A DNA stretch of 64,000 bases. It comes from a virus. The first letter of the stretch is position 1. Each line of letters opens with the position of its first letter. The notes under the pieces were generated by a model. The model was not told the origin of the DNA and made no database searches. It saw only the letters and a program-made list of their open reading frames with translations. The translations under genes were made by a program, and so were the position numbers. The stretch lies in the IMG/VR virus record IMGVR_UViG_3300028800_000074, positions 1 to 64,000 of that record; one strand, given 5' to 3'. This document shows positions 18,050 through 48,815 of the stretch, one piece after another.

Positions 18050-19585
18050 ATGGCCCTCGCCGCTCCGGTCATGTCTGACGAGGCGGTTTACGACCTGCTC
18101 CGCCGCCACGCCCCCGCGTCCGTGGTTGGCTACCTAACCTCCACCGCTCGTGAGCAGGAGGAAGAGGGCAACGCAAGGCTCGCGGAACAGTTTCGTCGTC
18201 AATGTGCGACGATGATCGGTTTCACAGAGTATCGCTATGCGCGATACGTCACAGCGCCGCATCACAAGCTCGTCTCTGAACAGCTTGAGCGCGTCGAGCG
18301 TCGAGAGATCGACCGGCTCATCATCGAGATGCCTCCCCGACATGGGAAGTCGGAGCTGGCCTCGAAGAGCTACCCGTCATGGTGCTTGGGCCGCAACCCG
18401 ACGAAACAGATCATCTCCGCCTCGGCCGCGAACGATCTGGCGCAGGACTGGGGCAAGTGGGTCCGCAACATTGTCGCCAGTGACGAGTTCAGATTGGTCT
18501 ACCCCGGCGTCGAGCTTGCCGAGGACAGCCGGGCCGCAGGAAAGTGGCAGACAAAGCAGGGCGGCATCTATGTCGCCGCGTCGGTTGGCACCGCGATCTT
18601 GGGCCGTGGCGCAGACGAGTATCTAATCGACGACGCGTTCGGGAGCATGCAGGACGCCCGCAGCGAGACGATCCGAAACTCGGTGTGGGAGTGGTACAAC
18701 GGCACCGTCTACAATCGGCTCCAGCCGGGCGGAGCAATCATCATCATCGGCCACCGCATGCACGAGGACGATCTCGCCGGGCGGCTCATTGAGCGCATGA
18801 AGGCTGGAGACGGCGCGGATCAGTGGACGATCATCCGGCTCCCCGCCGTCGCGGAAGCGCCGACGAAGGAATATCCCGAGCCCGACCCTCTGGGCCGCAA
18901 GCCCGGCGAGGCGCTCTGGCCAGCCTCCTATCCGATCAAGGCGCTCGAACGCATCCGAGCGAACACGCAGCCGCCGCGCAACTGGTTCGCGCTCTATCAG
19001 CAGCGGCCGACGCCTGACGAGGGCGCGATGTTCATGCCGGACAAGATCACGATCCGGAAGAACTCGAACACGTCCGACGTGGTGGTCTGGGTCCGAGCGT
19101 GGGACTTGGCGGCGAGCGTGGATGGGGACTGGACGGTCGGCGTGCAGATGGGGCGCACCAGTAGCGGGAAGATCGTCATCGGGCACGTGCGACGCCTCAG
19201 GGGCCGCCCAGAGGCGGTTTCAGAGGCCATTGCAGCTCAGGCCCGGCTTGACACGATCAGGGTCAAGATTGCGCTTCCGATTGACCCCGGTCAGGCCGGG
19301 CTCGCGCAGAAGTCCGCCTTCGTCAAACTGCTCAACGGCTTCCGGGTCGACTTCAGCCCGGAGAGCGGCGACAAGGAGACGAGGGCCGAACCGTTCGCGG
19401 TGCAGGTCAACAACGATAACGTCGAGATGATGGAAGGCGACTGGAACGCCGCCTACGTCGAAGAGCTTCGCAGCTTTCCCGACGGGAAGTACAAGGATCA
19501 GGTCGACGCATCGAGCCGGGCACACATGGTGCTCATGGCGTCGGGCATGCCGATCAGGATCAACCCGGCGCTGCTGGAGCGCTGA
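18050..19585 (+). CDS. terL: terminase large subunit
   Basis: MPPRHGKS Walker A, LIDD Walker B, YQQRP, RAWDLA, FPDGKYKDQVDA nuclease. Confidence 0.97.
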   Translation: MALAAPVMSDEAVYDLLRRHAPASVVGYLTSTAREQEEEGNARLAEQFRRQCATMIGFTEYRYARYVTAPHHKLVSEQLERVERREIDRLIIEMPPRHGKSELASKSYPSWCLGRNPTKQIISASAANDLAQDWGKWVRNIVASDEFRLVYPGVELAEDSRAAGKWQTKQGGIYVAASVGTAILGRGADEYLIDDAFGSMQDARSETIRNSVWEWYNGTVYNRLQPGGAIIIIGHRMHEDDLAGRLIERMKAGDGADQWTIIRLPAVAEAPTKEYPEPDPLGRKPGEALWPASYPIKALERIRANTQPPRNWFALYQQRPTPDEGAMFMPDKITIRKNSNTSDVVVWVRAWDLAASVDGDWTVGVQMGRTSSGKIVIGHVRRLRGRPEAVSEAIAAQARLDTIRVKIALPIDPGQAGLAQKSAFVKLLNGFRVDFSPESGDKETRAEPFAVQVNNDNVEMMEGDWNAAYVEELRSFPDGKYKDQVDASSRAHMVLMASGMPIRINPALLER

Positions 19586-20388: not shown

Positions 20389-22530
20389 ATGAAGGCCAGT
20401 CAGCTTCTTGCCGCTGCGTCCCTCCTCCTCGCCATTGGCGCGGAGACGCCAGCCTTCTCATATCCAGCAGGCTACGGCCCTCCAGCTTTGCCGTCAGCCT
20501 CGTTGCCGATCAGGCCGGAGTGCCTTCAGCCGCCGACGAGCTTCACCAACGTCTGGCACTTCGACGCGGTGAACGGCAAGCCGCCGAACTACCTTCAGGT
20601 CGCGGGCGCTTACGGCCCGATCATCATGTCGCCGACGACTGTCCCTACCGGGCAGACCATGAAGGCCTATATCGCCACATGGAACGGCTCAGCTTGGACG
20701 CAGGTGCTGACCACGTTCACCGCTGGTCAGGTCATCCCGGTCAGCGGCAACGGCTCTCTGGCCGCGCCTTGGAACGACGTGTCGGCCGTCATGTGGGCGA
20801 GCGCGAACGCCAAGGCTGGATACAGGTGGCCGCTGCTCGCGACCGTCCCGAGCTACCAGTACGTGGTCGGCAAGGGCTATGTCTATGCCAACGGCGGCGT
20901 GAACGGCGGCGTCCAGCAGTCGGGCCCGATCCTGCCCGGGGACGAGATTTTACTCGCGACCGGGAACTATGGCGCGGTCAGCTTCAATCTTCCGACCATC
21001 GAGGTCGTCAACAGCGGCTTCGTGACGATGGCCGCCGAGCCGGGGCAATCGCCCGTGATCGCGTCGCTTGTCCTCGCCGACACCAACAAGTGGCATTTCG
21101 ACGGGATCAAGTTTCAGTCGATGGCGGGCGTCCTTGCCAGCGTGAACGACGGCGGCGGCGCGGCTGACCAGTTCGGCAACCCGCTGGTCACCAGCGACAT
21201 CATCTTCACTGCAACTGACTTCTCCAACGTCGACGACTTGGTCGCGAACGGGTGGACGCAGGTCCAGTGGCGCAGCGCAACGAGCGGCTTCCAGTCGCAG
21301 GGGAGCAACGACGGCGCGAATACGAGATGCGTCTCGGTCCTCGCCAGCCATGCCCACAATCTGCATGAGGGCATCACGATCAATTCGAACTACTCGGTCG
21401 CGTCCTATGACGAGATCAACCGGTTCACTGACAACGCCCTGAGCCACGATGGCTCGTATCAGATTTTCGACGTCAACTTCACGCATGACCCGGTCGACGT
21501 TGGGCTCGCGTACCACGTTGACGGCTCGCAGCAGGAGGGCTTCGCGCTTCTCCCCGGGCAGACGTGGATCACCTACACCGACATCGAGAAGAACAACGGC
21601 CTCTTCATCGATCATTACGATCCGACGAGCCCGTTCGCCACGATCTGCATGACGGGGATGGATGACTACTCCGGCGTCGGCTACGTCATCGTCAAAAATC
21701 TGCGCATCCAAAACAATGTTCATATCTCGTGCGGGACTGGTGAACTCTACGAGCTGAACATCCAAGACTCGATCATCTCGAACAACACGGTTGTCCCAAC
21801 GAACCCGGCGCAGAACCCCCTCCCGGGTATCTCGCTGACGCTGACGAACAATTCAAACAGCCGGGTTTGCAACAACATCGCGCCGAACATCGTCGTCGCC
21901 AACAATCAGCCCGGCGTCACGTTCGACAACAACGTCGCCGTTCAGTATGCGGCCTATATCCAGAACGCCGACGGCTCATGGCCCGCGAGCGCGAGCTTCC
22001 TTCAGGCCTATGGCTGGTGGGACACGACCGGCCACTACAGCGCGACGCAGACGGCCGCCGCCAACAACCAGACGATGTCGATTGCGTCGTTCATGGCGCT
22101 CTTCAATCAGGCTCCGACCGGCGTCCCTCCGACCTATGACGTCTCGCTCAAGCCGGGCGCAACGACCAACGGGTCGGCGAGCTGCGGTCCGCAGACGAAC
22201 ACGGCCGGGCAGCTTCGCGCCTACTGGGTGAACTACACTGCGGCCGAGACGGCGGCGATGGCGCAGGACGCGATCTCGGCTGGAGACCTTACTGCGGCCA
22301 ATGTGGCGACGCAGACGGCGAACGCGTCGGCCTCGACGGCGGCGACGGACGATCAGGCCACGGCTGCGGCCAAGGCGATCTCGGACGCTGCCGACGCTCA
22401 GGCGGCGACGGACGCTCAGACGGCGGCTCAGGCAGTCACCACGTCGAACGCGGCTCAGGCTCAGGCCGCCACGCTTGACAACGCGGCGGCTGCGGCCGGT
22501 GCCGCGCCTATGGCCCCCGGCGCATACTGA
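20389..22530 (+). CDS. signal-peptide right-handed beta-helix (pectin-lyase fold) protein
   Basis: N-terminal signal peptide ending PAFS; PGDEILLATGNYG cap; Asn-rich IQNN/ISNNT/VCNNI/FDNNV repeats; Ala-rich tail. Confidence 0.75.
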   Translation: MKASQLLAAASLLLAIGAETPAFSYPAGYGPPALPSASLPIRPECLQPPTSFTNVWHFDAVNGKPPNYLQVAGAYGPIIMSPTTVPTGQTMKAYIATWNGSAWTQVLTTFTAGQVIPVSGNGSLAAPWNDVSAVMWASANAKAGYRWPLLATVPSYQYVVGKGYVYANGGVNGGVQQSGPILPGDEILLATGNYGAVSFNLPTIEVVNSGFVTMAAEPGQSPVIASLVLADTNKWHFDGIKFQSMAGVLASVNDGGGAADQFGNPLVTSDIIFTATDFSNVDDLVANGWTQVQWRSATSGFQSQGSNDGANTRCVSVLASHAHNLHEGITINSNYSVASYDEINRFTDNALSHDGSYQIFDVNFTHDPVDVGLAYHVDGSQQEGFALLPGQTWITYTDIEKNNGLFIDHYDPTSPFATICMTGMDDYSGVGYVIVKNLRIQNNVHISCGTGELYELNIQDSIISNNTVVPTNPAQNPLPGISLTLTNNSNSRVCNNIAPNIVVANNQPGVTFDNNVAVQYAAYIQNADGSWPASASFLQAYGWWDTTGHYSATQTAAANNQTMSIASFMALFNQAPTGVPPTYDVSLKPGATTNGSASCGPQTNTAGQLRAYWVNYTAAETAAMAQDAISAGDLTAANVATQTANASASTAATDDQATAAAKAISDAADAQAATDAQTAAQAVTTSNAAQAQAATLDNAAAAAGAAPMAPGAY

Positions 22531-22541
22531 CCATCTGATCG

Positions 22542-25500
22542 ATGGCAGCGCGTAAGCGGCCGACCTCATCCCCCCGGGTGAGGCCCGGCATCCATATCTC
22601 GGCGGCCCTCCAGTCCCGTATCCTGCGGGCCAAGGACGGTCCGAGCTACGACCCGTTCAAGCCCTACGTTCACGATCAGGCGCTGCACCCGCCCGGCGTA
22701 ACGATGGCGATGGACGACGCCTACAACTCCTTCAGCCCGACGGCTGGGTGGTCGGTCCGCAGCCTCGGCAGCGCTATCGCCGAGGGGCAGGTCTTCCTCG
22801 GCTACCCGACCTTGGCCGCGTTGCTTCAACGCGTCGAGTACATGAACGCGGTCATGTCCTACGCCGACGACATGACGCGGAAGTGGATCGAGTTCAAGGC
22901 GAGCGCCGGGACCGACAAGCAAGAGCGCATCGACGCGATTACAGACAAGTGGGACGCGCTTCAGGTGCAGGCGCGGATGAAGGATCATATCGCGCAGGCT
23001 CTCGGCTTCGGACGGGCGCACGTCTATCTCGACACGGGCGACACCGATAATCCGGACGAGCTGAAGAAGGACATTGGCGACGGCGCTCGGTCTGCCGCCA
23101 CGGCGTTCAAACTCCCGGGCAAGAAGGTGCTCGGGCTCAGGACGATTGAGCCGGTCTGGGTCAGCCCGCACGACTACGAGACCTCGAACCCGCTCAAGCC
23201 GAACTGGTACAAGCCCAACGCTTGGCACGTCATGGCGCGCGAGGTTCATGCGAGCCGTCTTCTGACGACCATCCCGTTCCCGGTCTCCGACTTGCTCAAG
23301 CCCGCCTACTCGTTCGGCGGCATCCCGCTCATCCAGATGGGCAAGCCATACGTCGACAACTGGCTGAACGTCAGACAGTCGACGACCGACATCGCCGAGG
23401 CCTACTCGATCTTCGTGCTTGCGACGAAGTTGCAGGACACGATGGCTGGCGGCAACGGAGACCAAGAAGTCCTCAACCGCGTGGCGCTCTTCAATCGATA
23501 CCGCTCTAACAAGGGCACGATGGTCATCGACAAGGAGACCGAGGACTTCAAGAACATCTCGGCCAATGTGTCCGGCATCGAGGCGATCCAAGCCGCGTCG
23601 CAGGAGCATATGAGCGCCGCATGGCGCATCCCGCTGGTCAAGCTCACCGGCATCTCGCCGTCCGGGCTCAATGCATCGAGCGAGGGCGAGATCAGGGTCT
23701 ATTACGACCTGATCCGGAGCATGCAGGAAGGCCTCATCCGCCCCCTGCTCCAGATCGTCCTCGACTTCACGAGCATCGAGCTGTTCGGCGACGTCGATCC
23801 GGATATCACGTTCGACTTCGTCAAGCTCTTCGAGGTCACCGAGGTTGAGGCGGCCCAGATCAGGTCGGCCGATGCGCAGACCGGCACGGCGCTCATCCAG
23901 TCCGGCGTGATCTCGACCGAGGAAGAGCGGGCCCGCGTCTCCAACGACCCGGACAGCCCGTACATCGACCTCAAGGACACGCCGATCCCAGTCATGCCGG
24001 GCCCAGCCCCGGGTGAAGAGGGCTACGTCGGCGATCCGGATAACTGGCAGACCGCCCTCGAAGGGATCAACAAGCTCGGCGGCCTCCTGCCAGCGCCGGA
24101 GCCCGAGCAGCGCGCCTCACCCGGCGCATGGGAAGGGGTGCTCAAGGGCGTTCTCGCCAACGGTGGGCTTGAGAACCCGGACAACGACGGCATCGTGGCC
24201 TCCCCCGAGGCATGGAAGGCCGTGGGGGCGGGTTTGTCCGCTTCCGGGGGTCTCAGCACCCCAGACGGCTCCGAGGCCGTCCAGCAGCCTCTTGAGCCCG
24301 CCATAAGGCAGGTGTTCGGCAAGGACGCGCTCGAAGACGAGCCGCGCAAGGGTGCCGGGCAGGCTGGCGGTGGCGAATGGACGGCTCAGAGCGGCGGCGG
24401 CGCTCAGAAGTCCGCGCCCGGGAAAAATGGCATTATTGCCGGTAATAATCCGGCCAAGCGTCCCCACGTCGCGCACTATGATCCGAAGGCGACGCAGGTC
24501 GACGCACAGGGCGTGGTTCACACCACGTCGGTCGTCGACGCCGCCCGGGCGCTCTATGACGGCAAGAAGGTCGACCTCAATCAGCCGAGAGAGGTCGCAA
24601 CACTCGTCGACCATCTGGGCCAAGTCGCGAAGCATATGATCGCGATGGGCGATGCTGCGCCGAACTTCAACCTGTGCAACGTCAGCGTCGACAACACGAA
24701 CATCTTCTGTGCGGTGAGCGAGGGCATCCCTCGCATCGACATGCCGCAGCTCCCGCCGAACCTGCACCCGTTCTTGTCGTTCCTCGGCGAGAAGGGTCTC
24801 GGCTTCCAGCCCGCGATGGAAAAGGCTGGCTACCTCAGGGCGACGCAGAACGAGCTGATCGGCGCTAAGGTCGCGGCTATCGCCAAGGCGTTGCAGAACA
24901 TCGATCCGCGCAAGCTCGACCCGCTCGTGGTCAGCAAGGACAACTATATCGTCGACGGTCACCATCGCTGGTCGGCGGAAGTGGCGATCTCGGCTGAGCA
25001 AGGCAACTTCGACCGGCCGCTCGAAATCTATCGCGTCAACAGCGACATCTTGCCGCTGCTCAAGCTCGCCAACGACTTCACGGGCGGCAAGGGACATGTC
25101 GCCGGATCGCTCAAGCCGGGCGAGGCTGCGCTGAACCTGAAGACCGAGAACCATTTCCTTGATGGGGAGACCCACGCGCACGACGGCCGCCCTTTTGGCC
25201 TTGACGAGGCTCGACCGAATCAGGCCATGGATGACTTCAGCCCGTCAGAACCGCGCAAGGGCGTGGGACAGGCTGGTGCAGGGGAGTGGACGGCGGAGGG
25301 TGGGGCTGCGGCTCCTTTTGGCAAAGGCAAGCAATCCGAGCCTTCCGCCGCTTCTCTAAGCGACAAGATCGTCTCAACCCGGAACGTGACAGCCAAGTCC
25401 ACCAAGGGCGAGGCCGAGGGCAAGTACCTCCGCATCGACACCGATGCGATGAAGGCTGACCCTGAGCTGTTCAAGCACAACGTCGGCCTCTTCAAGCGCG

Positions 25501-26627
25501 GCGACCTCTACCCCGGTATGAAGCCCGACGAACTGAAGGGCTCCGAGCAAGAGGTCGCCAAGGCCGTCATCGAGCGCATGCGCGACAACCTCGACTTCCT
25601 CGTCGGGATGGTGCCGAAGGACAAGATCAAGGCGTGGGCGCACTGGTATGAGGGGGCGCACAAATTCGCAGAGGACTTCGGCAAGAAGTATGGCGTCGAC
25701 ACGGCGAGCGCGGCAGGCGTGATCGCGGCCCTCTCGCCGCAGAGGCCGTGGGACGAGAACGTCTACTTCGCGGATCGCGTGATGGACATCATGAAGAACC
25801 ATCCCCACGACAAGTGGGACGACGCGATGAAGTCGACCGGCGAGAGGATTTGGACGAGCGCCAAGAACGCGCCGATCCTGAAGGCCATCGAAGGCAAGCG
25901 CCTCGACGAACTTGACGACCCAGTCGCTCAGGCGGCGTGGATCAGGACGTGGAACGAGGCGCACGAAGACCGCAAGTTCGAGATCGCGAAGCCGGACGGC
26001 ACGTTCGGCGGCAAGATGAAGACGGCGGCCGGAGGCTATGACACCGCGTCATGGGGATCGCTTGCGCAGACCGTGAACGCGATCCACGCTTTCCAGAGCG
26101 GCGGCGACCCGAAGAAGCTCTCCGCAATCTTGGGTGAGAGACACAAGGTTCGCAGCTTCTACAACAACATCATCGCCCCTGATGATCCTAACGGCGACGT
26201 GACGGTCGATACGCATGCTGTTGGAGCGGCGTGGTTGCAGCCGACCTCGGGGACTTCCGCTTCGGTCTGGCACAACCTAGCTAACAATCCGGGCGCAGAG
26301 GGCAAGGACCCGTTCCGGCCGAAGAACTGGGTAGCAGCCAAGGGCTCGGCGAAGCTCGGCGTGAGAGGCACGTATCCGCTCTATGCCGACGCCTATCGAG
26401 AGGCGGCGAAGGATTTGGGGCTCAAGCCCCGCGAGGTTCAGTCGGTCGCGTGGGAGATGAAGCAGCGCCTGTTCAGCGACAAGCTGACCGGCGAGAGGGT
26501 TCAGAAGGCCGTCAACGAGGTCTGGGAAGACTACCGTGACGGCAAGCTCTCGCTGAAGGATGCGCGAGAGAAGGTAGTCTCGGTCGCGACGGCTATGCGC
26601 CCCGACCACAAGATCGACTTCAACTGA
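22542..26627 (+). CDS. DUF1073 portal protein fused to long cargo extension (ParB-like and DUF7178-like domains)
   Basis: FLGYPTLAAL, VHASRLL, IPLVKLTGISPSGLNASSEGEIRVYYD portal motifs in the first ~480 aa; later LRATQ..IVDGHHRW and WY..IAALSPQ..KVRSFYNNI..VTVDTHA..EVQSVAW. Confidence 0.9.
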   Translation: MAARKRPTSSPRVRPGIHISAALQSRILRAKDGPSYDPFKPYVHDQALHPPGVTMAMDDAYNSFSPTAGWSVRSLGSAIAEGQVFLGYPTLAALLQRVEYMNAVMSYADDMTRKWIEFKASAGTDKQERIDAITDKWDALQVQARMKDHIAQALGFGRAHVYLDTGDTDNPDELKKDIGDGARSAATAFKLPGKKVLGLRTIEPVWVSPHDYETSNPLKPNWYKPNAWHVMAREVHASRLLTTIPFPVSDLLKPAYSFGGIPLIQMGKPYVDNWLNVRQSTTDIAEAYSIFVLATKLQDTMAGGNGDQEVLNRVALFNRYRSNKGTMVIDKETEDFKNISANVSGIEAIQAASQEHMSAAWRIPLVKLTGISPSGLNASSEGEIRVYYDLIRSMQEGLIRPLLQIVLDFTSIELFGDVDPDITFDFVKLFEVTEVEAAQIRSADAQTGTALIQSGVISTEEERARVSNDPDSPYIDLKDTPIPVMPGPAPGEEGYVGDPDNWQTALEGINKLGGLLPAPEPEQRASPGAWEGVLKGVLANGGLENPDNDGIVASPEAWKAVGAGLSASGGLSTPDGSEAVQQPLEPAIRQVFGKDALEDEPRKGAGQAGGGEWTAQSGGGAQKSAPGKNGIIAGNNPAKRPHVAHYDPKATQVDAQGVVHTTSVVDAARALYDGKKVDLNQPREVATLVDHLGQVAKHMIAMGDAAPNFNLCNVSVDNTNIFCAVSEGIPRIDMPQLPPNLHPFLSFLGEKGLGFQPAMEKAGYLRATQNELIGAKVAAIAKALQNIDPRKLDPLVVSKDNYIVDGHHRWSAEVAISAEQGNFDRPLEIYRVNSDILPLLKLANDFTGGKGHVAGSLKPGEAALNLKTENHFLDGETHAHDGRPFGLDEARPNQAMDDFSPSEPRKGVGQAGAGEWTAEGGAAAPFGKGKQSEPSAASLSDKIVSTRNVTAKSTKGEAEGKYLRIDTDAMKADPELFKHNVGLFKRGDLYPGMKPDELKGSEQEVAKAVIERMRDNLDFLVGMVPKDKIKAWAHWYEGAHKFAEDFGKKYGVDTASAAGVIAALSPQRPWDENVYFADRVMDIMKNHPHDKWDDAMKSTGERIWTSAKNAPILKAIEGKRLDELDDPVAQAAWIRTWNEAHEDRKFEIAKPDGTFGGKMKTAAGGYDTASWGSLAQTVNAIHAFQSGGDPKKLSAILGERHKVRSFYNNIIAPDDPNGDVTVDTHAVGAAWLQPTSGTSASVWHNLANNPGAEGKDPFRPKNWVAAKGSAKLGVRGTYPLYADAYREAAKDLGLKPREVQSVAWEMKQRLFSDKLTGERVQKAVNEVWEDYRDGKLSLKDAREKVVSVATAMRPDHKIDFN

Positions 26628-26649: not shown

Positions 26650-27096
26650 ATGACCACAGAGGATGCGAAGGCGGGTCTTAATCTGGTGATGGCCTACGCC
26701 GGTAGGTGGGCGCTGGGCGTCATTGCCTCGGCGCTTGTCTCAATAGGGCTTTACGCCGTCCACCAGAACAACGACATCACGGGCCTCCTGTCGTCGCACA
26801 CGCAAAACTTCGTGAGCATGCAGCGCGAGATCGACGAGATTAAGGGCGACATCGCCAACCACAACAAGCAGATCGACGATACGCAGAGGCAGATCAAGTC
26901 GGACCTGAGCGAGGCGCAGAAAGAGTCGCAGACGCAACTGGAGCGTCGGCAGGACGAGATCATGAGCGCGGTGCATGACGTAACGCGCGCCGTAATCGCC
27001 GCGCACTCCGACCTGATGTCTCTTCGGGCTGGTCTTTTGAACGCGAAGCCGGGTATTGTCATCCCGTTCGAAGATTCGAGCCGGGCCGAGAAATGA
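26650..27096 (+). CDS. single-TM coiled-coil protein
   Basis: WALGVIASALVSIGLYAV TM segment then heptad-rich region; possible lysis accessory. Confidence 0.65.
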   Translation: MTTEDAKAGLNLVMAYAGRWALGVIASALVSIGLYAVHQNNDITGLLSSHTQNFVSMQREIDEIKGDIANHNKQIDDTQRQIKSDLSEAQKESQTQLERRQDEIMSAVHDVTRAVIAAHSDLMSLRAGLLNAKPGIVIPFEDSSRAEK

Positions 27097-27440
27097 GATC
27101 GCAACTGATCATCGTGTTCACGGTCGCCTCTCTGGGCCAATCGGCCTCAGCGCACGCTGGCGACTGGACCGCGCAGGTCGTCGAGCGAACGCAAGGCGGG
27201 CCAGCGGCGGTCTGTAACGGTGAGCAGAGGATCGTCGTCACGAAGAAGCGTGACGGCACCTTCGTCATCGACGGGCCGACCTGCCTTGTTCCAAGAGCGC
27301 CTGCAAATAGCTGGGCTCCTCCGCCTCCGAGGCCGCCGAGCAAGACGGTCCCTCGAAGGGTCTACCACGAGCGCTATGAGCGGCCTCACCACAAGGGTCG
27401 CGCAGGGCTGTTCGACTTCCTGTTCGGTAAGCACCAATGA
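27093..27440 (+). CDS. secreted Pro-rich hypothetical protein
   Basis: Signal peptide ending ASAHA; Cys pair. Confidence 0.6.
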   Translation: MRSQLIIVFTVASLGQSASAHAGDWTAQVVERTQGGPAAVCNGEQRIVVTKKRDGTFVIDGPTCLVPRAPANSWAPPPPRPPSKTVPRRVYHERYERPHHKGRAGLFDFLFGKHQ

Positions 27441-29107
27441 ACACGCCCGGCTCCATCGCCGTCCTCAAGTTCATGACGGAGAACGACATCCCGCTCACCC
27501 GGGAGAACTTCGTCAACACGAACTGGGGCGGCAACCCGCCTCGCCCGTGGGACGCCGAGGCCGAAGAAGAGATACCACTGGAGCTGGCCGAGTTCGGCGA
27601 GCCGGAAGAGAACCGCGAGCTTCTGGAAGACCGTGGCGACCTCGCTGGCGACGACTGGGCCGTGATGGCATCCGGCAAGATCGTCGAAGTCCCCGCTGGC
27701 ACCAAGGCTGGCGACACAGCCCCGGACATCTGGGCCAAGGACGCCTTCGACCCGCAGGAGCCGCGCAAGGACGACGGCGAGTGGACGTCGGGAGGCGGGG
27801 GCGGCGGAGCGAAGGCTGAGAAGGAGCCGGTCGTCGACGTGCCCGCATATGAGTGGGCGAAGCGTCAGATCGACAAGCACACGAAGAACAGCAAGCTGCG
27901 CGCCAAGCAGCACGAGTGGATGGCGCGGCACAAGCAGAACGTCGACGCCTTCTTCAAGAAGAGCGACATCAAGGTCGCGCTCGACAAGGTCGCCAAGGAT
28001 GCGACATCGACCACGTCGTTCACCGTCGGCGCGGCGCTCAATAAGGGCGCGGACGTCGTCTCTGATGCGCTTCAGGACGCCTTGATCGCGGTGGCGGTCG
28101 GAGCTGGCGTCGCAGCCTTCGGCGTCGGAGGTTGGCAGGTCGCAGGATCGGCGGCGCTCGCTTACGCGGTCGAAGAGCTTGGCGACTGGCTCGGGCTCAC
28201 GCCGGAGAACGCGGTCAAGCTCATCAAGGCCGGAGTGCAGGAGATCGGGAAGGCGCTGAAGAAGCGCCCCCAGAAGGACGAGAACGACGACGGGATGTTC
28301 AGCCTTCTGTCGGCTCTCCCGTGGGATCACCCGGTCGACCCGAAGACGAACCCGTTCATCGAAGGCGAAGAGTTCGTGTCTCCGAACGTCAAGACTGGTC
28401 TCGATCTTCAGGACGCGATCAAGGAGACGACGTCGCCGCGCCACAAGACGATGATCAAGGCGGCGCGCGACATCAACAAGCTCATCGGCTTCGAGAGCGA
28501 AGAACACTCAGCGATTGGCGCTTGGCTCGACGGCGCAGAGAACAGCGTGATGTCTGTCACGCACGGCGCGACCATGGCTCAGCTCAGGACGGCGGCGGCG
28601 ATGGAGGGGGCGCTTGCAAACCAGCGCTCGGTGATGATCGTCAACGAGAACGTCGGCGGCAAGGGGCTGCTCTATCACTTCGACGTCAAGGGCGACGTTC
28701 AGTCGATCCACGACGGCTTGCTGGCGAGCGGCGTCGAGTTCCACACCATCGTTCCTTCCGCCGACGGCAAGTTCACGGTATATGTCGCCTCGGCTGATTC
28801 GTCACAACGAGAGTTCAAGGCGGTTCAGAAGGCGGCGGAGCGCTTCAATGCCAAAGTCGAGTACCACAGGGTCGACGCCGAACTCGTCGGATCGGACAAA
28901 GAAGACGGCACCGACGCCGAGCAGCGAGAAGACGCCCAGTCCCGTTACGGATCAATCATTGAAGGCGGCGGGGTTCAAGGAGCCAAAGCCATCTGGGGCC
29001 GGGTTTATTCTCGGTACAAGGCCGCCTTCGAAGACAGAGCCGTAAAGAAGCCTCGTGAAGAGAGGCCGCCGTGGCGGACGCAACAGGCTGAGGGGGCGAG
29101 AGCGTGA
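27437..29107 (+). CDS. multidomain head-associated (putative cargo) protein
   Basis: 556-aa ORF with AKDAFDPQEPRKDDGEWT tag, a hydrophobic central segment and a GAW..GAENS...NQRSV domain. Confidence 0.75.
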   Translation: MNTPGSIAVLKFMTENDIPLTRENFVNTNWGGNPPRPWDAEAEEEIPLELAEFGEPEENRELLEDRGDLAGDDWAVMASGKIVEVPAGTKAGDTAPDIWAKDAFDPQEPRKDDGEWTSGGGGGGAKAEKEPVVDVPAYEWAKRQIDKHTKNSKLRAKQHEWMARHKQNVDAFFKKSDIKVALDKVAKDATSTTSFTVGAALNKGADVVSDALQDALIAVAVGAGVAAFGVGGWQVAGSAALAYAVEELGDWLGLTPENAVKLIKAGVQEIGKALKKRPQKDENDDGMFSLLSALPWDHPVDPKTNPFIEGEEFVSPNVKTGLDLQDAIKETTSPRHKTMIKAARDINKLIGFESEEHSAIGAWLDGAENSVMSVTHGATMAQLRTAAAMEGALANQRSVMIVNENVGGKGLLYHFDVKGDVQSIHDGLLASGVEFHTIVPSADGKFTVYVASADSSQREFKAVQKAAERFNAKVEYHRVDAELVGSDKEDGTDAEQREDAQSRYGSIIEGGGVQGAKAIWGRVYSRYKAAFEDRAVKKPREERPPWRTQQAEGARA

Positions 29108-29313
29108 CGCTCGAAGAAGAGCTTTTCAAAAGAGCGCAGCTTGAGGCTGAGGCGGATCGCATCCTCAGCATCGGCATCGCGCATAATCGAAAGGTGCAGC
29201 GAAACGCCAAGCGCCTTAAGCACTGGACTGGGGGCCGCCTCACCACGGCCGAGATCAATCAGATGACGGCTGAGATGAGGGCGAGGGCTGGTGACGGCAA
29301 GGTTCTCGGGTAA
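29104..29313 (+). CDS. hypothetical protein
   Basis: GTGA-coupled 69-aa ORF. Confidence 0.55.
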   Translation: MTLEEELFKRAQLEAEADRILSIGIAHNRKVQRNAKRLKHWTGGRLTTAEINQMTAEMRARAGDGKVLG

Positions 29314-30214
29314 GTGGTGCGGGCAGCCTTACGGCAAGCCCAGCGTGCTGCTCACCCTTCCAAACCTCATGGGTCTCGACGCCAAGGCGTCAGGGAAGCC
29401 CGCTGGCGGCCGTCGGCCGTCCGTCGCGGTAGGCAGGCCCCTGCATCCGAACCTCGGTCTGGCGGCCTCCTATGGGGCGCGGCTGACCTCTCTGATCGAC
29501 GAGATGCACCGGAGCGTTATCTATTGGCTCAAGGCCGAGTATCGAGCTAACCCACCAGCGACCATGGCGTTCGACGATCTCGCATCGAAGACACTGGCCG
29601 AGACGATGAAGGGTTTGGCGAAGCGGTGGCTAGGACGCTTCGATGAAATGGCGGAGAGGCTGGCCCGTTATTTCGCCCAGTCCGTATCCAAGCGGACCGA
29701 CGACGCGCTCAGGAAGATTTTGAGCGACGGCGGCATGGCGCTCAGGGACTGGAAGACGACCGCCGCCCAGAAGGATGCGCTCGCGGCCATCGTCCACGAG
29801 AACGTGTCGCTGATCAAATCGATCCCGCGCGAGTATCTCGGCAAGGTCGAGCGCGACGTGATGCGGTCGGTCGCGGCCGGTCGAGACCTGAAGCAGCTCG
29901 AAGACGATCTTCAGGCACACTTCGGGGTGACCCGAGACAGGGCTAGGCTGATCGCGGTCGACCAGAACAACAAGGCGACGGCGATGCTGCGCCGCGTCCG
30001 CGCCGTCGAGGCGGGCACGTTCACATGGGAGTGGATGCACTCCAGCGCAGGCAAGACGCCGCGCCCGACGCATCTCGCGGCCGGACGTCGTGGCCAGCGG
30101 TTCGACATCCGAGAGGGATGGTTCGATCCGCATGAGGGCCGCAAGGTTCAGCCGGGCGAATTGATCCGGTGCCGATGTACTTGCCGACCGGTTTTCCCCG
30201 GCCTACCGTCCTGA
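29291..30214 (+). CDS. MuF / SPP1 gp7-like head morphogenesis protein
   Basis: ENVSLIKSIP, RARLIAVDQNNKA, WMHS...PRPTH, PGELIRCRC; true start may be downstream. Confidence 0.92.
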   Translation: MTARFSGKWCGQPYGKPSVLLTLPNLMGLDAKASGKPAGGRRPSVAVGRPLHPNLGLAASYGARLTSLIDEMHRSVIYWLKAEYRANPPATMAFDDLASKTLAETMKGLAKRWLGRFDEMAERLARYFAQSVSKRTDDALRKILSDGGMALRDWKTTAAQKDALAAIVHENVSLIKSIPREYLGKVERDVMRSVAAGRDLKQLEDDLQAHFGVTRDRARLIAVDQNNKATAMLRRVRAVEAGTFTWEWMHSSAGKTPRPTHLAAGRRGQRFDIREGWFDPHEGRKVQPGELIRCRCTCRPVFPGLPS

Positions 30215-35940: not shown

Positions 35941-38397
35941 ATGCGTCGACCTGTCGGGTTCGCCCGAGCGCTTGCGCTCGACGACTTCAATGCGGCTGAG
36001 CCTCGCGCCAACAATGGCCAGTGGGCAGCGGCTCCGGGCGGGGGCTTCACGCTCAGGCCAGACGCGGCCAGTGCCGCTACCCGTTACAGAAGGGCAACGG
36101 AGCGAGCGCAGTCTGCTCTGCCTGACGACGACGAATATCAGCGTCTTCTGGAGCAGGGGCGGAAGCTCGAAGGCCTGAAGGCCGCCGTCCGCGATCCCCT
36201 GACCGGGAAGATCATGACCGGGCGTGATCACAACGCGGCGTTCTACTCGCACGATAAGGATGCGCAGGCGCGCATCAAGGCGACACTGACGCCCGGACGA
36301 GACCCGGTGACGAACGTCGCGACCAATAGGTGGAACTACGAAGGGCCAAACGTCGGCTTTACTCGTGGTGGATCATTTTTCTCGCGTCAGCAGGTCGAGG
36401 ACATGCTTAAGGCGCGCGATGATCAGGATTTATCCGAAGCGCTTCACGGTGCCTCCTACGAGGATGTGCGCTCGAAGCGCAGTTCAATCGCCAGCACCAT
36501 CGCCCGCTTCCATAATCGTGAGGGCGGAGAACCCATGTTCGGTGGAGATCGAAGGAAAGTGTTCGCGCACGACGCAATCGATGCAGAGATGGCGTTCGAT
36601 GAAGCCCAGACCACGCGATCTTATGATCCGTTCGGTCGGCTCAACCTCGACCTGACGCCGATCTCGAAGGCGACCGTCAATCCATATCAGGGGAAGGAAA
36701 TCCCCGACTGGCAGAAGCTCAAGCTTGACCCCGAAAAGGTCTACATGCTGCTTCGCCATCCCGACGAACTGAAGCGCGCAGCCGCGAGCTTCAACAATGT
36801 GCCGCTGCTCTATCGTCACAAGCCGACGAGCGCCGAGAACCATCCACGCGATCTCGTTGTGGGGACGACCGGCGAGCGCGCAGTTTATCAGCACCCCTAC
36901 CTCTACAACTCGATGTCCGTCTGGGACGACAACGACGGCATCGAGGGCATCGAGAACAACAAGGCTCGCGCTCTCTCGTGTGGCTACGCCTATGACCCGG
37001 ACATGAGGCCGGGCGTCTACGAGGGGCAGCGTTACGACGGCGTGATGCGCAACATCAGGGGCAATCACGTCATCCTCACAAAGGAAGGCCGCGCCGGGCC
37101 GGACATCATCGTTGGCGACTCAATGGAGAACCTCAACATGGCAACTGCACCGAAGCTTTCTCCGGTGGCATTGGTCGCTCGAAGGGCGGTCAGGCAGCAC
37201 CTTACGCCGCTCATGGCGGCCGACGCGGCGATTGACATCACGCCCGCCTTCGTCGGCCTCAAGCAGCTCGACGAGCGATCCCAGCAGATCGTTCACGCGC
37301 GGGTCGGCCAGCTCGTGCGCGGCAAGCTCAACGCGGCGCTGGCGATGGACGATGTGAGCGCCGGGCTCCGTGCGCTGCTCGAAGCGCTTGGCGGAGGCGG
37401 CGAGCCCGACATGGGCGGCGGCGTCGACGACGTCTCCCCTCCCGGGACCGAGGCCGAGGGCATGCCCGAGACCGACCTCGCGACCGGCGCAGAGCCGGAC
37501 ACGATGCAGCTCGAAACCGACGCCGCTCCCCCGGAGGATACCTCTGGCGGCAACGACCCGCCTCCGATGCAGGGCGCTGGCGGCGATCCGGCTGCGATGG
37601 AGCAGGCGGGTCCGGCACCGCAGGGCGGCGAAGGCGCGGCAGGACCGATTGAGAAGGTCCGCAGCTACCTCATGACCGTCCTGAACCCCGCCGAGATGCA
37701 GCATCTCGAACTCCTCATCTCCGAAGTCGACAGCGGCGACGGAGGGGAGCCGGACCCGACCATGCAGGCGGGAGGCTCAGAGAAGCCCGGTGGCGGCCAT
37801 CCGCCGATGGCCGGTGCTGGTGGACCTCCCGGCCCCGACAAGGGCGCTGGCGGGCCTCCTATGGCCGCTGGCGGCCCTCCCAAGCCTCCCGGCGCTGGCG
37901 GACCTCCGCCGAAGCCCGGCGCGGGTGGGCCTCCCGATCCCAAGAAGCAAACCGGGGATAACCCCCCTCGAACCGCAGGAACGCCGCAGGTCGGCGGAAA
38001 GGACAGAAACATGGCAGGTGATCAGGCCTTCGTCAGCCGGGCCGACCTTCAGGCTGCGCTCGCGGCGAACGACAAGCTCCATCGTGAGCGTGCGGAAGCC
38101 CGGGCTTTCATCCGACCGTTTGTCGGGGAACTCACCGGGCTCGCGATGGACGCGGCTCCGAACGACGTCATCAAGGCCGCGCTCAAGATCAAGGGCATGT
38201 CCGACGCCGACCTGAAGCCAATTCAGGACACGGCCGCGCTCAAGCTCCTGCTCGGCGCTCAGTCGAAGGCCGAAGCGTCGCGTGAGAGAGCGCCCCGCAT
38301 GGCGCTCGATTCGAAGGCGACGTCGAAGGACGAGCCCTTCAGCATCGAGGCCGTCACCGGTCTCAAGAACTTCGGAAGGATCGGACGCGCGGCCTAA
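35941..38397 (+). CDS. DUF2213 prohead protease-scaffold fusion with N-terminal extension
   Basis: ISKATVNPYQGKEIP, LSCGY.Y, GNHVILTKEGRAG; Pro/Gly-rich scaffold region; about 216 extra N-terminal residues. Confidence 0.9.
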   Translation: MRRPVGFARALALDDFNAAEPRANNGQWAAAPGGGFTLRPDAASAATRYRRATERAQSALPDDDEYQRLLEQGRKLEGLKAAVRDPLTGKIMTGRDHNAAFYSHDKDAQARIKATLTPGRDPVTNVATNRWNYEGPNVGFTRGGSFFSRQQVEDMLKARDDQDLSEALHGASYEDVRSKRSSIASTIARFHNREGGEPMFGGDRRKVFAHDAIDAEMAFDEAQTTRSYDPFGRLNLDLTPISKATVNPYQGKEIPDWQKLKLDPEKVYMLLRHPDELKRAAASFNNVPLLYRHKPTSAENHPRDLVVGTTGERAVYQHPYLYNSMSVWDDNDGIEGIENNKARALSCGYAYDPDMRPGVYEGQRYDGVMRNIRGNHVILTKEGRAGPDIIVGDSMENLNMATAPKLSPVALVARRAVRQHLTPLMAADAAIDITPAFVGLKQLDERSQQIVHARVGQLVRGKLNAALAMDDVSAGLRALLEALGGGGEPDMGGGVDDVSPPGTEAEGMPETDLATGAEPDTMQLETDAAPPEDTSGGNDPPPMQGAGGDPAAMEQAGPAPQGGEGAAGPIEKVRSYLMTVLNPAEMQHLELLISEVDSGDGGEPDPTMQAGGSEKPGGGHPPMAGAGGPPGPDKGAGGPPMAAGGPPKPPGAGGPPPKPGAGGPPDPKKQTGDNPPRTAGTPQVGGKDRNMAGDQAFVSRADLQAALAANDKLHRERAEARAFIRPFVGELTGLAMDAAPNDVIKAALKIKGMSDADLKPIQDTAALKLLLGAQSKAEASRERAPRMALDSKATSKDEPFSIEAVTGLKNFGRIGRAA

Positions 38398-38446: not shown

Positions 38447-39415
38447 ATGTCGGGCTTCCAGACCCAAGTCAATATCCAGCCCGCACTGGGTGTCGCGGGC
38501 GACTTTTGCAGCGCCAACACCCACAACACCTTCCAGTCCGGCGCAGGCGGCCTCGTCGCGGGCCCGGCTGGCGTGACCGTCGCCGCGTTCGCGTGGGTGA
38601 CCTATCAGACGACGGATGACGCCTACGCTCCGGGCACGGTCAACAGCTTCGGCTTTGGACCACCGAGCGGCTTCATCCATCGCGAGATGCAGTCGCTGAA
38701 CACCGTCTATCCGCCTTACGTCACCCCGGCTGGCGACAACACGATCCCGTCTGGCTTCCAGATCGGCTCGCTGTTCCGCTCCGGCGACTTCTTCATGACG
38801 AACAACGGGACCACGCAGGCGCAGCCGGGCCAGACGGCCTATGCGTTCCTCGCGACCGGCCTCGTCCGCTTCGGCTCGGCGAACACCACGACGTCGTCGA
38901 CGACCTCGACCGTCTCGGCGCAGACCTTCAGCGTCACCGCGACGCTGAACAACAACATCATGACCGTCTCGAACGTCAGCTCGGGCTCGATCTACGCGGG
39001 CGCGACCATCTCGGGTTCGGGCGTGATCGGGTGCCAGATCGTCGGTCAGGTGACCCCGCTACTCGCGGGCGAGACCCTCGCTGGCGTCGGCCGCTACTAC
39101 GTCAGCGCGGCCGAGCAGAACGTCGCCGTCGGCGTCACCGTCTCGGGCACCTACGGGTTGCTCACGCTCGGCGGCGCTCCAGCCACGCCGATCCCGATTG
39201 GCGCGTTCGTGAGCGGCGGCACCGTCGGCAACCCCTGCTATGTCCGGCAGCTCATCTCGGGCACGGGCGGCGCGGGCTCGACCTACTCGGTCGACAACAA
39301 CACCGTCTCTTCGTCGGCCACGCTCACCTTCACGCTCGACGTGGCGACGAGCTGGGTTGCGGACTCGGCGGGAGCGCCCGGCGAAGTCGTCAAGACCCGC
39401 TGCCTGATCCCGTAA
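38447..39415 (+). CDS. head cement/decoration protein
   Basis: MSGFQTQVN.QPA.GVAGDF.S.N, GFIHRE.Q, GDFF; lies between protease and capsid genes. Confidence 0.85.
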   Translation: MSGFQTQVNIQPALGVAGDFCSANTHNTFQSGAGGLVAGPAGVTVAAFAWVTYQTTDDAYAPGTVNSFGFGPPSGFIHREMQSLNTVYPPYVTPAGDNTIPSGFQIGSLFRSGDFFMTNNGTTQAQPGQTAYAFLATGLVRFGSANTTTSSTTSTVSAQTFSVTATLNNNIMTVSNVSSGSIYAGATISGSGVIGCQIVGQVTPLLAGETLAGVGRYYVSAAEQNVAVGVTVSGTYGLLTLGGAPATPIPIGAFVSGGTVGNPCYVRQLISGTGGAGSTYSVDNNTVSSSATLTFTLDVATSWVADSAGAPGEVVKTRCLIP

Positions 39416-39471: not shown

Positions 39472-40575
39472 ATGACCGTTCACATGAACCCGCAAGAGGC
39501 ACGCGCCGCTTGGGCTCTGCATGCGCCCGAGTTCGCTCGCCTCGGTTTTATCGCGCCGGAAATCCAGTCCTACTACCCCTCTGGGATGAAGGAAGACTGG
39601 ACGCTGGCGTTCGACGCGCAGCCTTCGCTCCAGTCCGACCCGAACTCGGCGCTGCCGGTGATGCTCACGACGATGATCGACCCAGAAGTCGTTCGCTTCG
39701 TCTTCGCGCCGACCGAGTTCGCCGACATCTGCGGCGAAGTCCGGAAGGGTACGTGGCTCGACGAGACGATCCTCTTCCCGGTCGTTGAACACACCGGCGA
39801 GGTCGCGCCCTACGGCGACGACTTCAACAGCGGCGCGTCCGGGGTCAACATGAACTGGCCCCCGAGGCAGAGCTACCTGTTCCAGATCATCAAGCAGTAC
39901 GGACAGCGTGCGCTTGAGCGGGCGGGGCTCGGCAAGATCGACTACGTGAGCGAGATCGACAAGGCTGCGGCCGACGTCGTGAACCGCTTCCACAACCTCG
40001 CCTACGCGTTCGGCATCCTAGGCCTCATCAACTACGGCATGTTGAACGACCCGGCGCTCCCGGCGTCGCTCACCCCGGGCGTCAAGGCGAACGGAAACGG
40101 CAACGTCTGGATTTTCAACAATCTGCCGAACGCCAGCGCCAACGAGGTCTACAACGACATCCTCGCCCTCTACCAGTCGCTCATCTCGCGCACCTACGGC
40201 CTCGTCAACAAGAAGTCGAAGCTGACGCTCGTGATGTCGCCGGGTTCCGAGATGGCGATGGACTTCGCCAACGGCTTCAACGTCCACACGAGCGACATCC
40301 TCGCGAAGGCGTTCCCGAACCTCACGATCAAGACCGCGCCGCAGTACGGCGTGCTCTCTGCGGCCAACCCGCAGGGGATCACCGGGGGCAACTTCGTGCA
40401 GCTCTTCGCCGAGGAGTTCGAGGGGACCAAGACCGTGATGGCCGCCTTCAACGAGAAGCAGCGCGCCTTCCCCATCATCAAGGAGATGTCGTCCTTCAAG
40501 CAGAAGGTCGCCTCCGGCGTGTGGGGCACCGTGATCCGACGGCCGCTCGCCGTCGCATCCATGATCGGGGTGTAA
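39472..40575 (+). CDS. major capsid protein (DUF2184)
   Basis: LAFDAQP.L, TTMIDP, GEVAPYGD, RQSYLFQ, YGMLNDP, GTVIRRPLAVASMIGV. Confidence 0.95.
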   Translation: MTVHMNPQEARAAWALHAPEFARLGFIAPEIQSYYPSGMKEDWTLAFDAQPSLQSDPNSALPVMLTTMIDPEVVRFVFAPTEFADICGEVRKGTWLDETILFPVVEHTGEVAPYGDDFNSGASGVNMNWPPRQSYLFQIIKQYGQRALERAGLGKIDYVSEIDKAAADVVNRFHNLAYAFGILGLINYGMLNDPALPASLTPGVKANGNGNVWIFNNLPNASANEVYNDILALYQSLISRTYGLVNKKSKLTLVMSPGSEMAMDFANGFNVHTSDILAKAFPNLTIKTAPQYGVLSAANPQGITGGNFVQLFAEEFEGTKTVMAAFNEKQRAFPIIKEMSSFKQKVASGVWGTVIRRPLAVASMIGV

Positions 40576-48678: not shown

Positions 48679-48815
48679 TCGCTCTCCAGACGGTCCTCAG
48701 CGTCAAGGACTTATATGTCCTGCTCGAAGTCATGACCGTCGACACCTACAACAAGCGCCAGTACCAAGAGGCTTGGAAGGCAAAGTTAGAGCGCGAACGT
48801 GCCAACGGTTCTTGA
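48534..48815 (+). CDS. -1 frameshift extension of tail chaperone (gpGT-like)
   Basis: In-frame slippery heptamer A AAT TTT at 48534-48540; the -1 frame is open to 48815 (YPNVP..LQTVLSVKDLY.LLEV). Confidence 0.8.
   Translation, partial: KFFDALEPIGRGFRAFFDDLGVEPVGYPNVPDTIAACLSASTSPAETLIALQTVLSVKDLYVLLEVMTVDTYNKRQYQEAWKAKLERERANGS

Follow-up and report, generated by a model that had tools for sequence, protein, structure and literature searches.

A modular protein from a phage head module carries a C-terminal domain with a predicted SAM-lyase-like fold

The open reading frame (ORF) at positions 27437-29107 (+ strand) of the virus record IMGVR_UViG_3300028800_000074 encodes a modular protein of 556 amino acids, whose C-terminal domain (C-domain) has S-adenosylmethionine (SAM) lyases as the best single-domain structural neighbours of its predicted model. 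This ORF, referred to below as the cargo ORF, is located among the head genes of a phage within the window analyzed in this study (the whole stretch of 64,000 nucleotides taken from the record). Our reading is that it encodes a modular head cargo protein and that its C-domain is a divergent member, or an offshoot, of the PII-like SAM-lyase fold; taken as a whole, this reading is assigned a probability of roughly 0.5. True SAM-type lyase chemistry, suggested by the structural model and the residues conserved in it, is a more tentative proposition, held at less than even odds. The same degree of caution applies to the broader proposal that the C-domain represents an unnamed SAM-lyase/PII branch (at least 757 protein clusters), which would reside in phage heads as portal fusions or as a tagged free protein and be injected, destroying SAM or a SAM-derived immune signal before phage gene expression.

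Fold and conserved residues of the C-domain

The C-domain comprises amino acids 309-533 (approximately 225 residues; 28361-29035, + strand, as are all further features of the cargo ORF), as delimited by an AlphaFold model, fold searches and a homologue search, and not amino acids ~305-440 as originally proposed. Its AlphaFold2 model, based on a 46-sequence alignment, reached a predicted local distance difference test (pLDDT) score of 94.6 and a predicted template modelling (pTM) score of 0.90. The first half (amino acids 309-404; 28361-28648) is the part that matches SAM lyases and, according to DSSP, forms a β-α-β-β-α-β core (E309-314, H334-350, E353-363, E366-376, H380-393 and E398-404, in protein numbering). 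This corresponds to the ferredoxin-like β1-α1-β2-β3-α2-β4 core of the solved SAM lyases, with the caveat that Z scores below 8 lie in a grey zone. It is followed by a second ferredoxin-like β-α-β-β-α-β half (amino acids 410-485; 28664-28891), in which H425, H436, T437 and P440 are conserved, and by two C-terminal helices (amino acids 493-532; 28913-29032) with conserved D493, R497, Y504 and W520, which SAM lyases do not possess. A test for an internal repeat between the first and the second half gave no signal. The protein ends with a basic, low-confidence tail (amino acids 534-556; 29036-29104; the pLDDT of the model drops to 56 at its end), which is not conserved.

A Foldseek search of the Protein Data Bank (PDB) revealed the T3 SAM lyase (8bb1_E) as the best match by template modelling (TM) score (probability 1.00, TM 0.51 normalised to the target), and tandem ferredoxin-like proteins were found at poor TM values (0.2-0.3). 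Re-scoring of the Foldseek list with VIA-align gave Z 8.0 for Svi3-3 (6znb; 107 of 125 residues, root-mean-square deviation (rmsd) 3.0, 15% identity) and Z 7.2 for the T3 SAM lyase (8bb1_E; 17% identity). In an unbiased VIA-align search of 48,161 representative PDB chains, Svi3-3 (6zm9_A) was ranked first (Z 7.7, rmsd 3.1, 107 of 129 residues), T3 SAMase (7ock_L) sixth (Z 6.8) and a SAM-AMP lyase (9gab_D) seventh (Z 5.8, 94 residues aligned), with ACT, S6, RRM and other ferredoxin folds at Z of 5.6 or less. Overall, the likeness to Svi3-3 (6ZM9/6ZNB) and T3 SAMase (8BB1/7OCK; PF23780) extends over 107-123 residues at Z 6.8-8.0 and 13-17% identity. Among predicted viral structures (BFVD), the top matches were domains of large polyvalent phage proteins, and these were followed by many proteins of 125-165 amino acids from T7-like phages, several of them named SAM hydrolase (target-normalised TM 0.45-0.57). 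The original prediction had seen a possible SAM-lyase-like domain in this part of the protein and was to be given up if a fold comparison yielded no SAM-lyase-like match; the comparison was run and the prediction survived it, since SAM lyases are the best single-domain neighbours of the high-confidence model.

SAM and SAM-AMP lyases have a PII-like ferredoxin fold, in which structural conservation is limited to two residues, a Glu ending the β2-β3 T-loop and a Gln in the α2-β4 B-loop (PMC12255297; PMC7877911). These are E69 and Q104 in Svi3-3, E68 and Q94 in T3, and E71 and Q108 in Cbo, and their mutation lowers lyase activity (PMC7877911; PMC12255297; 10.1101/2023.02.27.530186); in T3 E68 and Q94 mutants the activity is lost (10.1101/2023.02.27.530186). 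The Svi3-3 site is also lined by Gly56 and Tyr58 on β2, and by Ser71 (PMC7877911; PMC12255297). In the alignment of 15 T3-type sequences, G55, T70, Q94 and V97 were invariant, and Y57 and E68 near-invariant.

In the C-domain, the motif GAWLDGAENS (amino acids 361-370; 28517-28546) places G361 and W363 at the end of strand β2 and, after a tight turn, E368 and S370 at the beginning of strand β3, and Q396 (28622-28624) occupies the loop between helix α2 and strand β4. Conservation, computed over 150 family representatives, was 100% for Q396, 99% for G361, W363, E368 and K/R397, 97% for D365 and 95% for S/T370. E368 is the third residue of β3 and, by its secondary-structure position, matches the lyase Glu site at the C-terminal end of the β2-β3 loop; in the same sense Q396, between helix 380-393 and strand 398-404, matches the B-loop Gln site. 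In the model, E368 is a candidate catalytic Glu and Q396 a candidate counterpart of the B-loop Gln. The Glu-to-Gln spacing is 28 in the C-domain family, compared with 26 in T3, 35 in Svi3-3 and 37 in Cbo.

The succession G-x-W / E-x-S / Q-x-x-V, on which the SAM lyase assignment had initially been based as a weak inference, lines up with T3 G55-x-Y57 / E68-x-T70 / Q94-x-x-V97 and also with Svi3-3 G56, Y58, E69, S71 and Q104 (PMC7877911). The strings quoted for it are indeed present, AIGAWLDGAENSVM at amino acid 359 and AAAMEGALANQRSVMIV at amino acid 386. The accompanying label "DUF3293-like" was rejected, as T3 SAMase matches PF23780 only. As in Svi3-3 and T3, a G-x-aromatic precedes the turn, the Glu of an E-x-S/T follows it and the Gln lies in the α2-β4 loop, in the same order, and, like these lyases, the C-domain is phage-encoded. 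The case for a real relationship is strongest here: the two best-conserved polar residues coincide with the two lyase-defining positions, and the G-x-aromatic and E-x-S/T beside them agree as well.

Several observations weigh against a kinship with SAM lyases or against the chemistry and delivery proposed here. At the sequence level, the C-domain did not match PF23780 (S-AdoMet_lyase; cut-off 28 bits) even at E≤10, the score of T3 SAMase being 143 bits. Comparison of the C-domain family with the 15-sequence T3-type alignment by hhalign, both local and global, was not significant (probability 0.3-0.4%); the sole local alignment, limited to 13-20 columns around Q396/Q94 and with a probability below 1%, pairs Q396 with T3 Q94. 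A PDB profile search with the domain alignment gave only chance matches to ribosomal protein S2 (E ~0.5). It should be added that known SAM lyases are barely alignable among themselves (PMC7877911). At the structural level, the lyase T-loop is a 10-12-residue hairpin enclosing the substrate (PMC12255297), and the β2-β3 connection of the C-domain model amounts to 2-4 residues (364-365, at most 364-367) and is thus far shorter. The correspondence of E368 and Q396 to the lyase Glu and Gln is one of secondary-structure position, not of residue-level superposition. Unlike Svi3-3 and T3, the C-domain has approximately 225 amino acids, with the second ferredoxin-like half and the two conserved helices. 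Its near-invariant residues beyond the lyase pair are D365, H425, H436, T437, D493, R497, Y504 and W520, and none of these has a SAM-lyase counterpart, so the chemistry may differ. Moreover, according to the tool's own note, Z 7-8 is a range often reached by models without true relatives, and therefore the fold match alone is suggestive and not decisive. Finally, packaging, injection, substrate, chemistry and cleavage are steps that we infer, and a dozen or so injected molecules working at ~10 turnovers per second could hardly drain the cellular SAM pool. This makes a scarce SAM-derived or nucleotide signal a likelier target than bulk SAM. The rate is that of Svi3-3 (PMC7877911). Thus, the fold and the motif order of the predicted SAM-lyase-like domain were borne out, whereas a significant match to PF23780 or at the profile level and a T-loop of the usual length were not found, and the Z scores are ambiguous.

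The porter subdomains of RND efflux pumps (AcrB, AcrD, MexB and CusA) score as high as SAM lyases, which also counts against the latter. They are built of tandem β-α-β-β-α-β repeats and match both halves of the C-domain (Z 7-8.5 over 154-171 residues; Z 7.5-8.5 in the VIA-align re-scoring). They differ, however, in being parts of membrane transporters of 1000 amino acids; identity is only 6-12%, none of the conserved residues is shared, and they are most likely a fold analogue.

Another explanation is that the C-domain is a tandem ferredoxin-like effector of the PII/ACT type with a different job, which would capture a signal (a small molecule or a nucleotide) by binding or sequestering it, or carry out some other His/His/Arg/Asp catalysis. 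The likeness to lyases would then reflect a shared ancient fold, and the protein would still be delivered with the virion. Proteins with PII-like folds accommodate a variety of ligands in comparable clefts (PMC12255297), a PII protein was aligned with the second half of the C-domain (Z 4.4), and ACT domains reached Z 5-5.8. The lack of profile-level similarity to PF23780, the position of the invariant H425, H436, R497, D493 and Y504 outside the SAM-lyase core, and the fact that the partner domains Acb1, NUDIX and LigT act on nucleotide signals would all be accommodated by this explanation. Nevertheless, SAM lyases outrank every other single ferredoxin-fold protein in the unbiased search, the two best-conserved polar residues are a Glu and a Gln at both lyase positions, and G-x-aromatic and E-x-S/T agree in order too (PMC7877911). 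We consider a non-lyase effector rather unlikely.

A phage-restricted family and its relation to known systems

Exhaustive HMMER searches of 1.84 billion representatives yielded 757 matches to the C-domain at E≤1e-3; at the stricter cut-offs of 1e-10 and 1e-30, 411 and 113 remained. The matches are representatives of protein clusters at 50% identity, of which there are thus at least 757. Nearly all of them cover only residues ~309-533, in proteins of 199-3080 amino acids and with the domain at any position. When one genome from every one of 185,579 prokaryotic species was scanned with a pattern, the C-domain was found in only 2 short contigs of metagenome-assembled genomes, versus 93 viral contigs. 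No match to the C-domain was found in Pfam (including the LPD families), PHROG, NCBIfam or PDB sequences, and nothing above noise in the ESM Atlas. The C-domain is a large, unnamed, phage-restricted family, almost all members of which are polyvalent or portal-fused phage proteins.

Pfam domains accompanying the C-domain in 37 long homologues were DUF7178 (12), several portal families, ART-PolyVal, NUDIX, Acb1, Zeta toxin, LigT, MuF and DUF2213. Among 80 viral loci, the C-domain was encoded in one ORF with a portal in 20 and lay no more than 8 kb from a portal in 44; it shared its ORF with DUF7178 in 26 matches and with a ParB-like domain in 11. Its closest viral relative, with 56% identity in the C-domain, was identified in locus L002 (4740-8756, + strand), where a protein of 1338 amino acids begins with a NUDIX domain and carries the mid-domain (described below) and the C-domain at its C-terminal end.

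Such a spread is what effector modules of phage-type polyvalent proteins show (Iyer, Burroughs, Anand, de Souza, Aravind 2017; PMC5512222). In these proteins the modules are shuffled, and the genes adjoin those of the portal and MuF or are fused to them. ART, NUDIX, ParB-like, 2H/LigT and Zeta, the partners of the C-domain, are domains listed for polyvalent proteins, and such proteins are presumed to enter the host together with the DNA (PMC5512222). Both features are seen here: several unrelated modules occur in shuffled order, three of them in the cargo ORF, and they are encoded among virion genes or fused to them (portal, MuF). Compared with typical polyvalent proteins, the cargo ORF is short, with three modules of which only one is enzyme-like. 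Neither a SAMase or ferredoxin-fold module nor a linker tag is described in PMC5512222.

The same distribution bears on the idea that the protein serves only in building the head or in ejecting the DNA, as a structural or assembly factor (of a scaffold-like, pilot or ejection type), with a hydrophobic hairpin inserted into the host membrane and the C-domain serving non-enzymatically in packing or DNA contact. The location of the gene between the portal and MuF genes, the hydrophobic helical hairpin with long helices and the frequent direct fusion of the C-domain to portals would suit this idea. On the other hand, the C-domain moves among architectures and positions beside known enzymes, as effectors do, its conserved residues are polar and of a catalytic type, and the mid-domain is missing from nearly all family members and so is not needed for the role of the C-domain. 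We consider a purely structural function improbable.

Apart from Svi3-3 and T3, which are free early proteins of 125-150 amino acids, unlike the C-domain embedded in multi-domain proteins of the head module, the nearest enzymes are the SAM-AMP lyase of type III CRISPR-CorA and the phage protein AcrIIIB4 (9GAB; PMC12255297). They share with the C-domain the PII-like fold and the Glu/Gln pair, and AcrIIIB4, like the cargo ORF product, is fused to an extra N-terminal domain (PMC12255297). Their target is a scarce signal, which suits a low-copy injected enzyme. However, the structural score of the SAM-AMP lyase is below that of Svi3-3, no sequence similarity to the C-domain was detected, and AcrIIIB4 has not been reported as a virion component. 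Phage P1 DarA, DarB and DdrB and the T4 internal proteins are head-loaded proteins countering host defence, some of them proteolytically processed, and injected before gene expression. The likeness to the P1 Dar proteins (discussed in PMC5512222) and the T4 internal proteins is in concept only, as neither the folds nor the targeting signals are related.

In the literature, no link was found between SAM lyases and polyvalent or virion proteins, and a SAM-lyase-like fold inside virion-associated polyvalent proteins is a setting that we have not found described. To our knowledge, the SAM lyases described to date are either small, free phage proteins that are expressed early (T3, Svi3-3) or SAM-AMP lyases associated with CRISPR. 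If the C-domain is a working relative, the SAM-lyase family is far larger than these, and a new mode of delivery would be added, with the enzyme pre-made in the virion and often fused to the portal at a fixed copy number. Loaded in advance, such an enzyme would counter SAM-dependent restriction, BREX or SAM-AMP signalling, and would provide a testable function for a very common unannotated module of polyvalent proteins and a new class of injected anti-defence enzymes. Even with a different chemistry, the C-domain is an enzyme-like domain that is restricted to phages, is well modelled and offers a small set of candidate catalytic residues.

N-terminal modules and possible mode of delivery

The remaining part of the protein (amino acids 1-308) was modelled with AlphaFold from 7 sequences at a mean pLDDT of 56, and only secondary structure was taken from this model. 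The N-terminal mini-domain (amino acids 1-55; 27437-27601), delimited with phmmer, is predicted to be helical (H4-15 and H22-30, pLDDT 60-68). It was found again only at the extreme N-termini of five other cargo or polyvalent proteins (P0002, P0014, P0021, P0026 and P0065; phmmer, amino acids 5-57), and it opens the ORF directly downstream of a portal/polyvalent gene in approximately 10 other viral loci (L033-L035, L038-L040, L044, L067 and L076). This recurrence suggests a conserved leader of free cargo. The mini-domain may dock the free protein into the assembling head or procapsid, standing in for the portal fusion of the same C-domain elsewhere.

Next comes an acidic disordered linker (amino acids 56-102; 27602-27742; pLDDT 30-44) with AGD/AGD/AKD triplets, and then a tag, FDPQ-EPRKDDGEW-T, followed by a run of six glycines (amino acids 103-124; 27743-27808). 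All short strings quoted in the original prediction were located (IPLTRENF at amino acid 18, WGG at 30, AGD at 70 and 91, AKD at 100 and EPR at 108). Its term "polyprotein", which implies proteolytic processing, could not be upheld on the basis of the triplets: [AGS]-x-D occurs 15 times in the ORF, compared with 11.5 +/- 2.7 in shuffled sequences (p = 0.14), i.e. at chance level, and these triplets were rejected as a cleavage code.

The tag, in turn, truly recurs. It is present in 4 copies in the head genes of the window, of which two others are in the portal extension and one is near the start of the protease ORF (position 35998, amino acid ~20). With a loose pattern, 161 copies were detected in 94 of 151 homologues (P0001-P0151), usually with T and a Gly run next. 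Two dialects were distinguished in these homologues, [FY][DN]Px[EQ]PRDxxG[RK]WT-GGG and WxExxHPRGQPENxG[EQ]F-GGGG, which are at times mixed in one protein. The tag lies at most 60 amino acids upstream of the C-domain in 62 of 150 instances (median gap 11.5 amino acids); in the cargo ORF, the PRxxGxW tag at amino acids 103-124 forms the N-terminal border of the mid-domain module. The acidic linker and the PRxxGxW-GGG tag may mark the start of the cargo unit and could be a processing or recognition site. Cutting at the tag by the DUF2213 protease encoded in the same head module is possible; no literature on the specificity of this protease was found.

The mid-domain (amino acids 135-292; 27839-28312) is all-helical, with six predicted helices (pLDDT 50-81), and is rare, being found only in P0002, P0003 and P0021 (phmmer) and in the viral locus L002. 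It had no family match and nothing above noise in the ESM Atlas, and a word-indexed search with the mid-domain alone recovered only its own protein. It contains a Gly/Ala-rich hydrophobic helical hairpin (amino acids 205-252; 28049-28192), composed of helices H205-227 and H233-252 in the low-confidence model. The hydrophobic Gly/Ala stretch, which had been noticed beforehand, is located at amino acids 215-245, where the 19-residue Kyte-Doolittle mean rises to 1.88, and the hydrophobicity of the hairpin is kept in P0002, P0003 and P0021. The mid-domain with its hairpin might aid exit from the virion or membrane association.

We propose that the protein is probably enclosed in the capsid and enters the host along with the DNA, and that its C-terminal 225-residue domain would be the effector in the newly infected cell. 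SAM lyases cleave SAM to methylthioadenosine and homoserine lactone, and form homo-oligomers (trimers, or a dimer in the case of T3) whose active site lies at the subunit interface. By analogy with the Svi3-3, T3 and Cbo lyases, E368 and Q396 would bind a sulfonium substrate (SAM itself or a signal derived from it, e.g. SAM-AMP), which would cyclise and split without water. The second half and the C-terminal helices may replace the neighbouring subunit that completes the pocket in trimeric lyases. In the record there is neither a canonical SAM lyase nor a DNA methyltransferase of the three main Pfam families (PF01555, PF00145 and PF02086), whose activity would suffer from the destruction of SAM; this is weakly compatible with a SAM-destroying role.

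The cargo ORF and the surrounding head module

The cargo ORF is a genuine coding sequence, as its GC content at codon positions 1, 2 and 3 (0.65/0.43/0.82) is typical for a genome with 62% GC. It begins with ATG (the given coordinates include the stop codon), has a whole-length homologue of 523 amino acids (P0002), and its N-terminus is conserved in this homologue. No matches to the whole ORF were found in Pfam, PHROGs, NCBIfam or PDB sequences, nor by tblastn against 50,697 phage records. Its start shares a 4-base ATGA overlap with the stop of the upstream ORF of 115 amino acids, and its stop overlaps the GTG of the next ORF of 69 amino acids; these overlaps on both sides indicate that the gene belongs to a tightly packed operon.

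The IMG/VR record that holds the window has 79,131 bases and is approximately 91% complete, and the genes surrounding the cargo ORF are the head module of a myovirus. Upstream, this module comprises the large terminase (TerL; 18050-19585), an ORF of 713 amino acids (20389-22530, + strand), the portal (PF06381) with a ParB-like module and DUF7178 in a single protein of 1361 amino acids (22542-26627), and two small ORFs (26650-27096 and 27093-27440, both + strand). The 713-residue ORF, located between TerL and the portal, had zero Pfam or PHROG matches, which is unusual for so conserved a position. The small ORFs each share 4 bases with their neighbours. The first (148 amino acids) has an N-terminal hydrophobic helix and a coiled coil, with weak matches to Rz-like spanin PHROGs (E 6e-5), and the N-terminus of the second (115 amino acids) resembles a signal peptide.

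Downstream, the ORF of 69 amino acids (29104-29313, + strand), without a family match, bridges the cargo ORF and the gene of a MuF-like head morphogenesis protein (29291-30214), overlapping both. Further on, there are a DUF2213-type head maturation protease of 818 amino acids (35941-38397, + strand), a minor head protein (38447-39415), a major head protein (39472-40575) and a tail sheath (44372-46348). In the protease ORF, DUF2213 accounts for only amino acids 226-394 of 818, with long unassigned extensions on both sides.

Two tape-measure-like ORFs (48799-53080) follow the tail sheath gene. These are ORFs 48799-50820 (673 amino acids) and 50813-53080 (755 amino acids), both on the + strand and with an 8-base overlap, and each matches phrog_9570 from its N-terminus; they may represent two paralogues in tandem, or a tape measure gene that has been split or duplicated.

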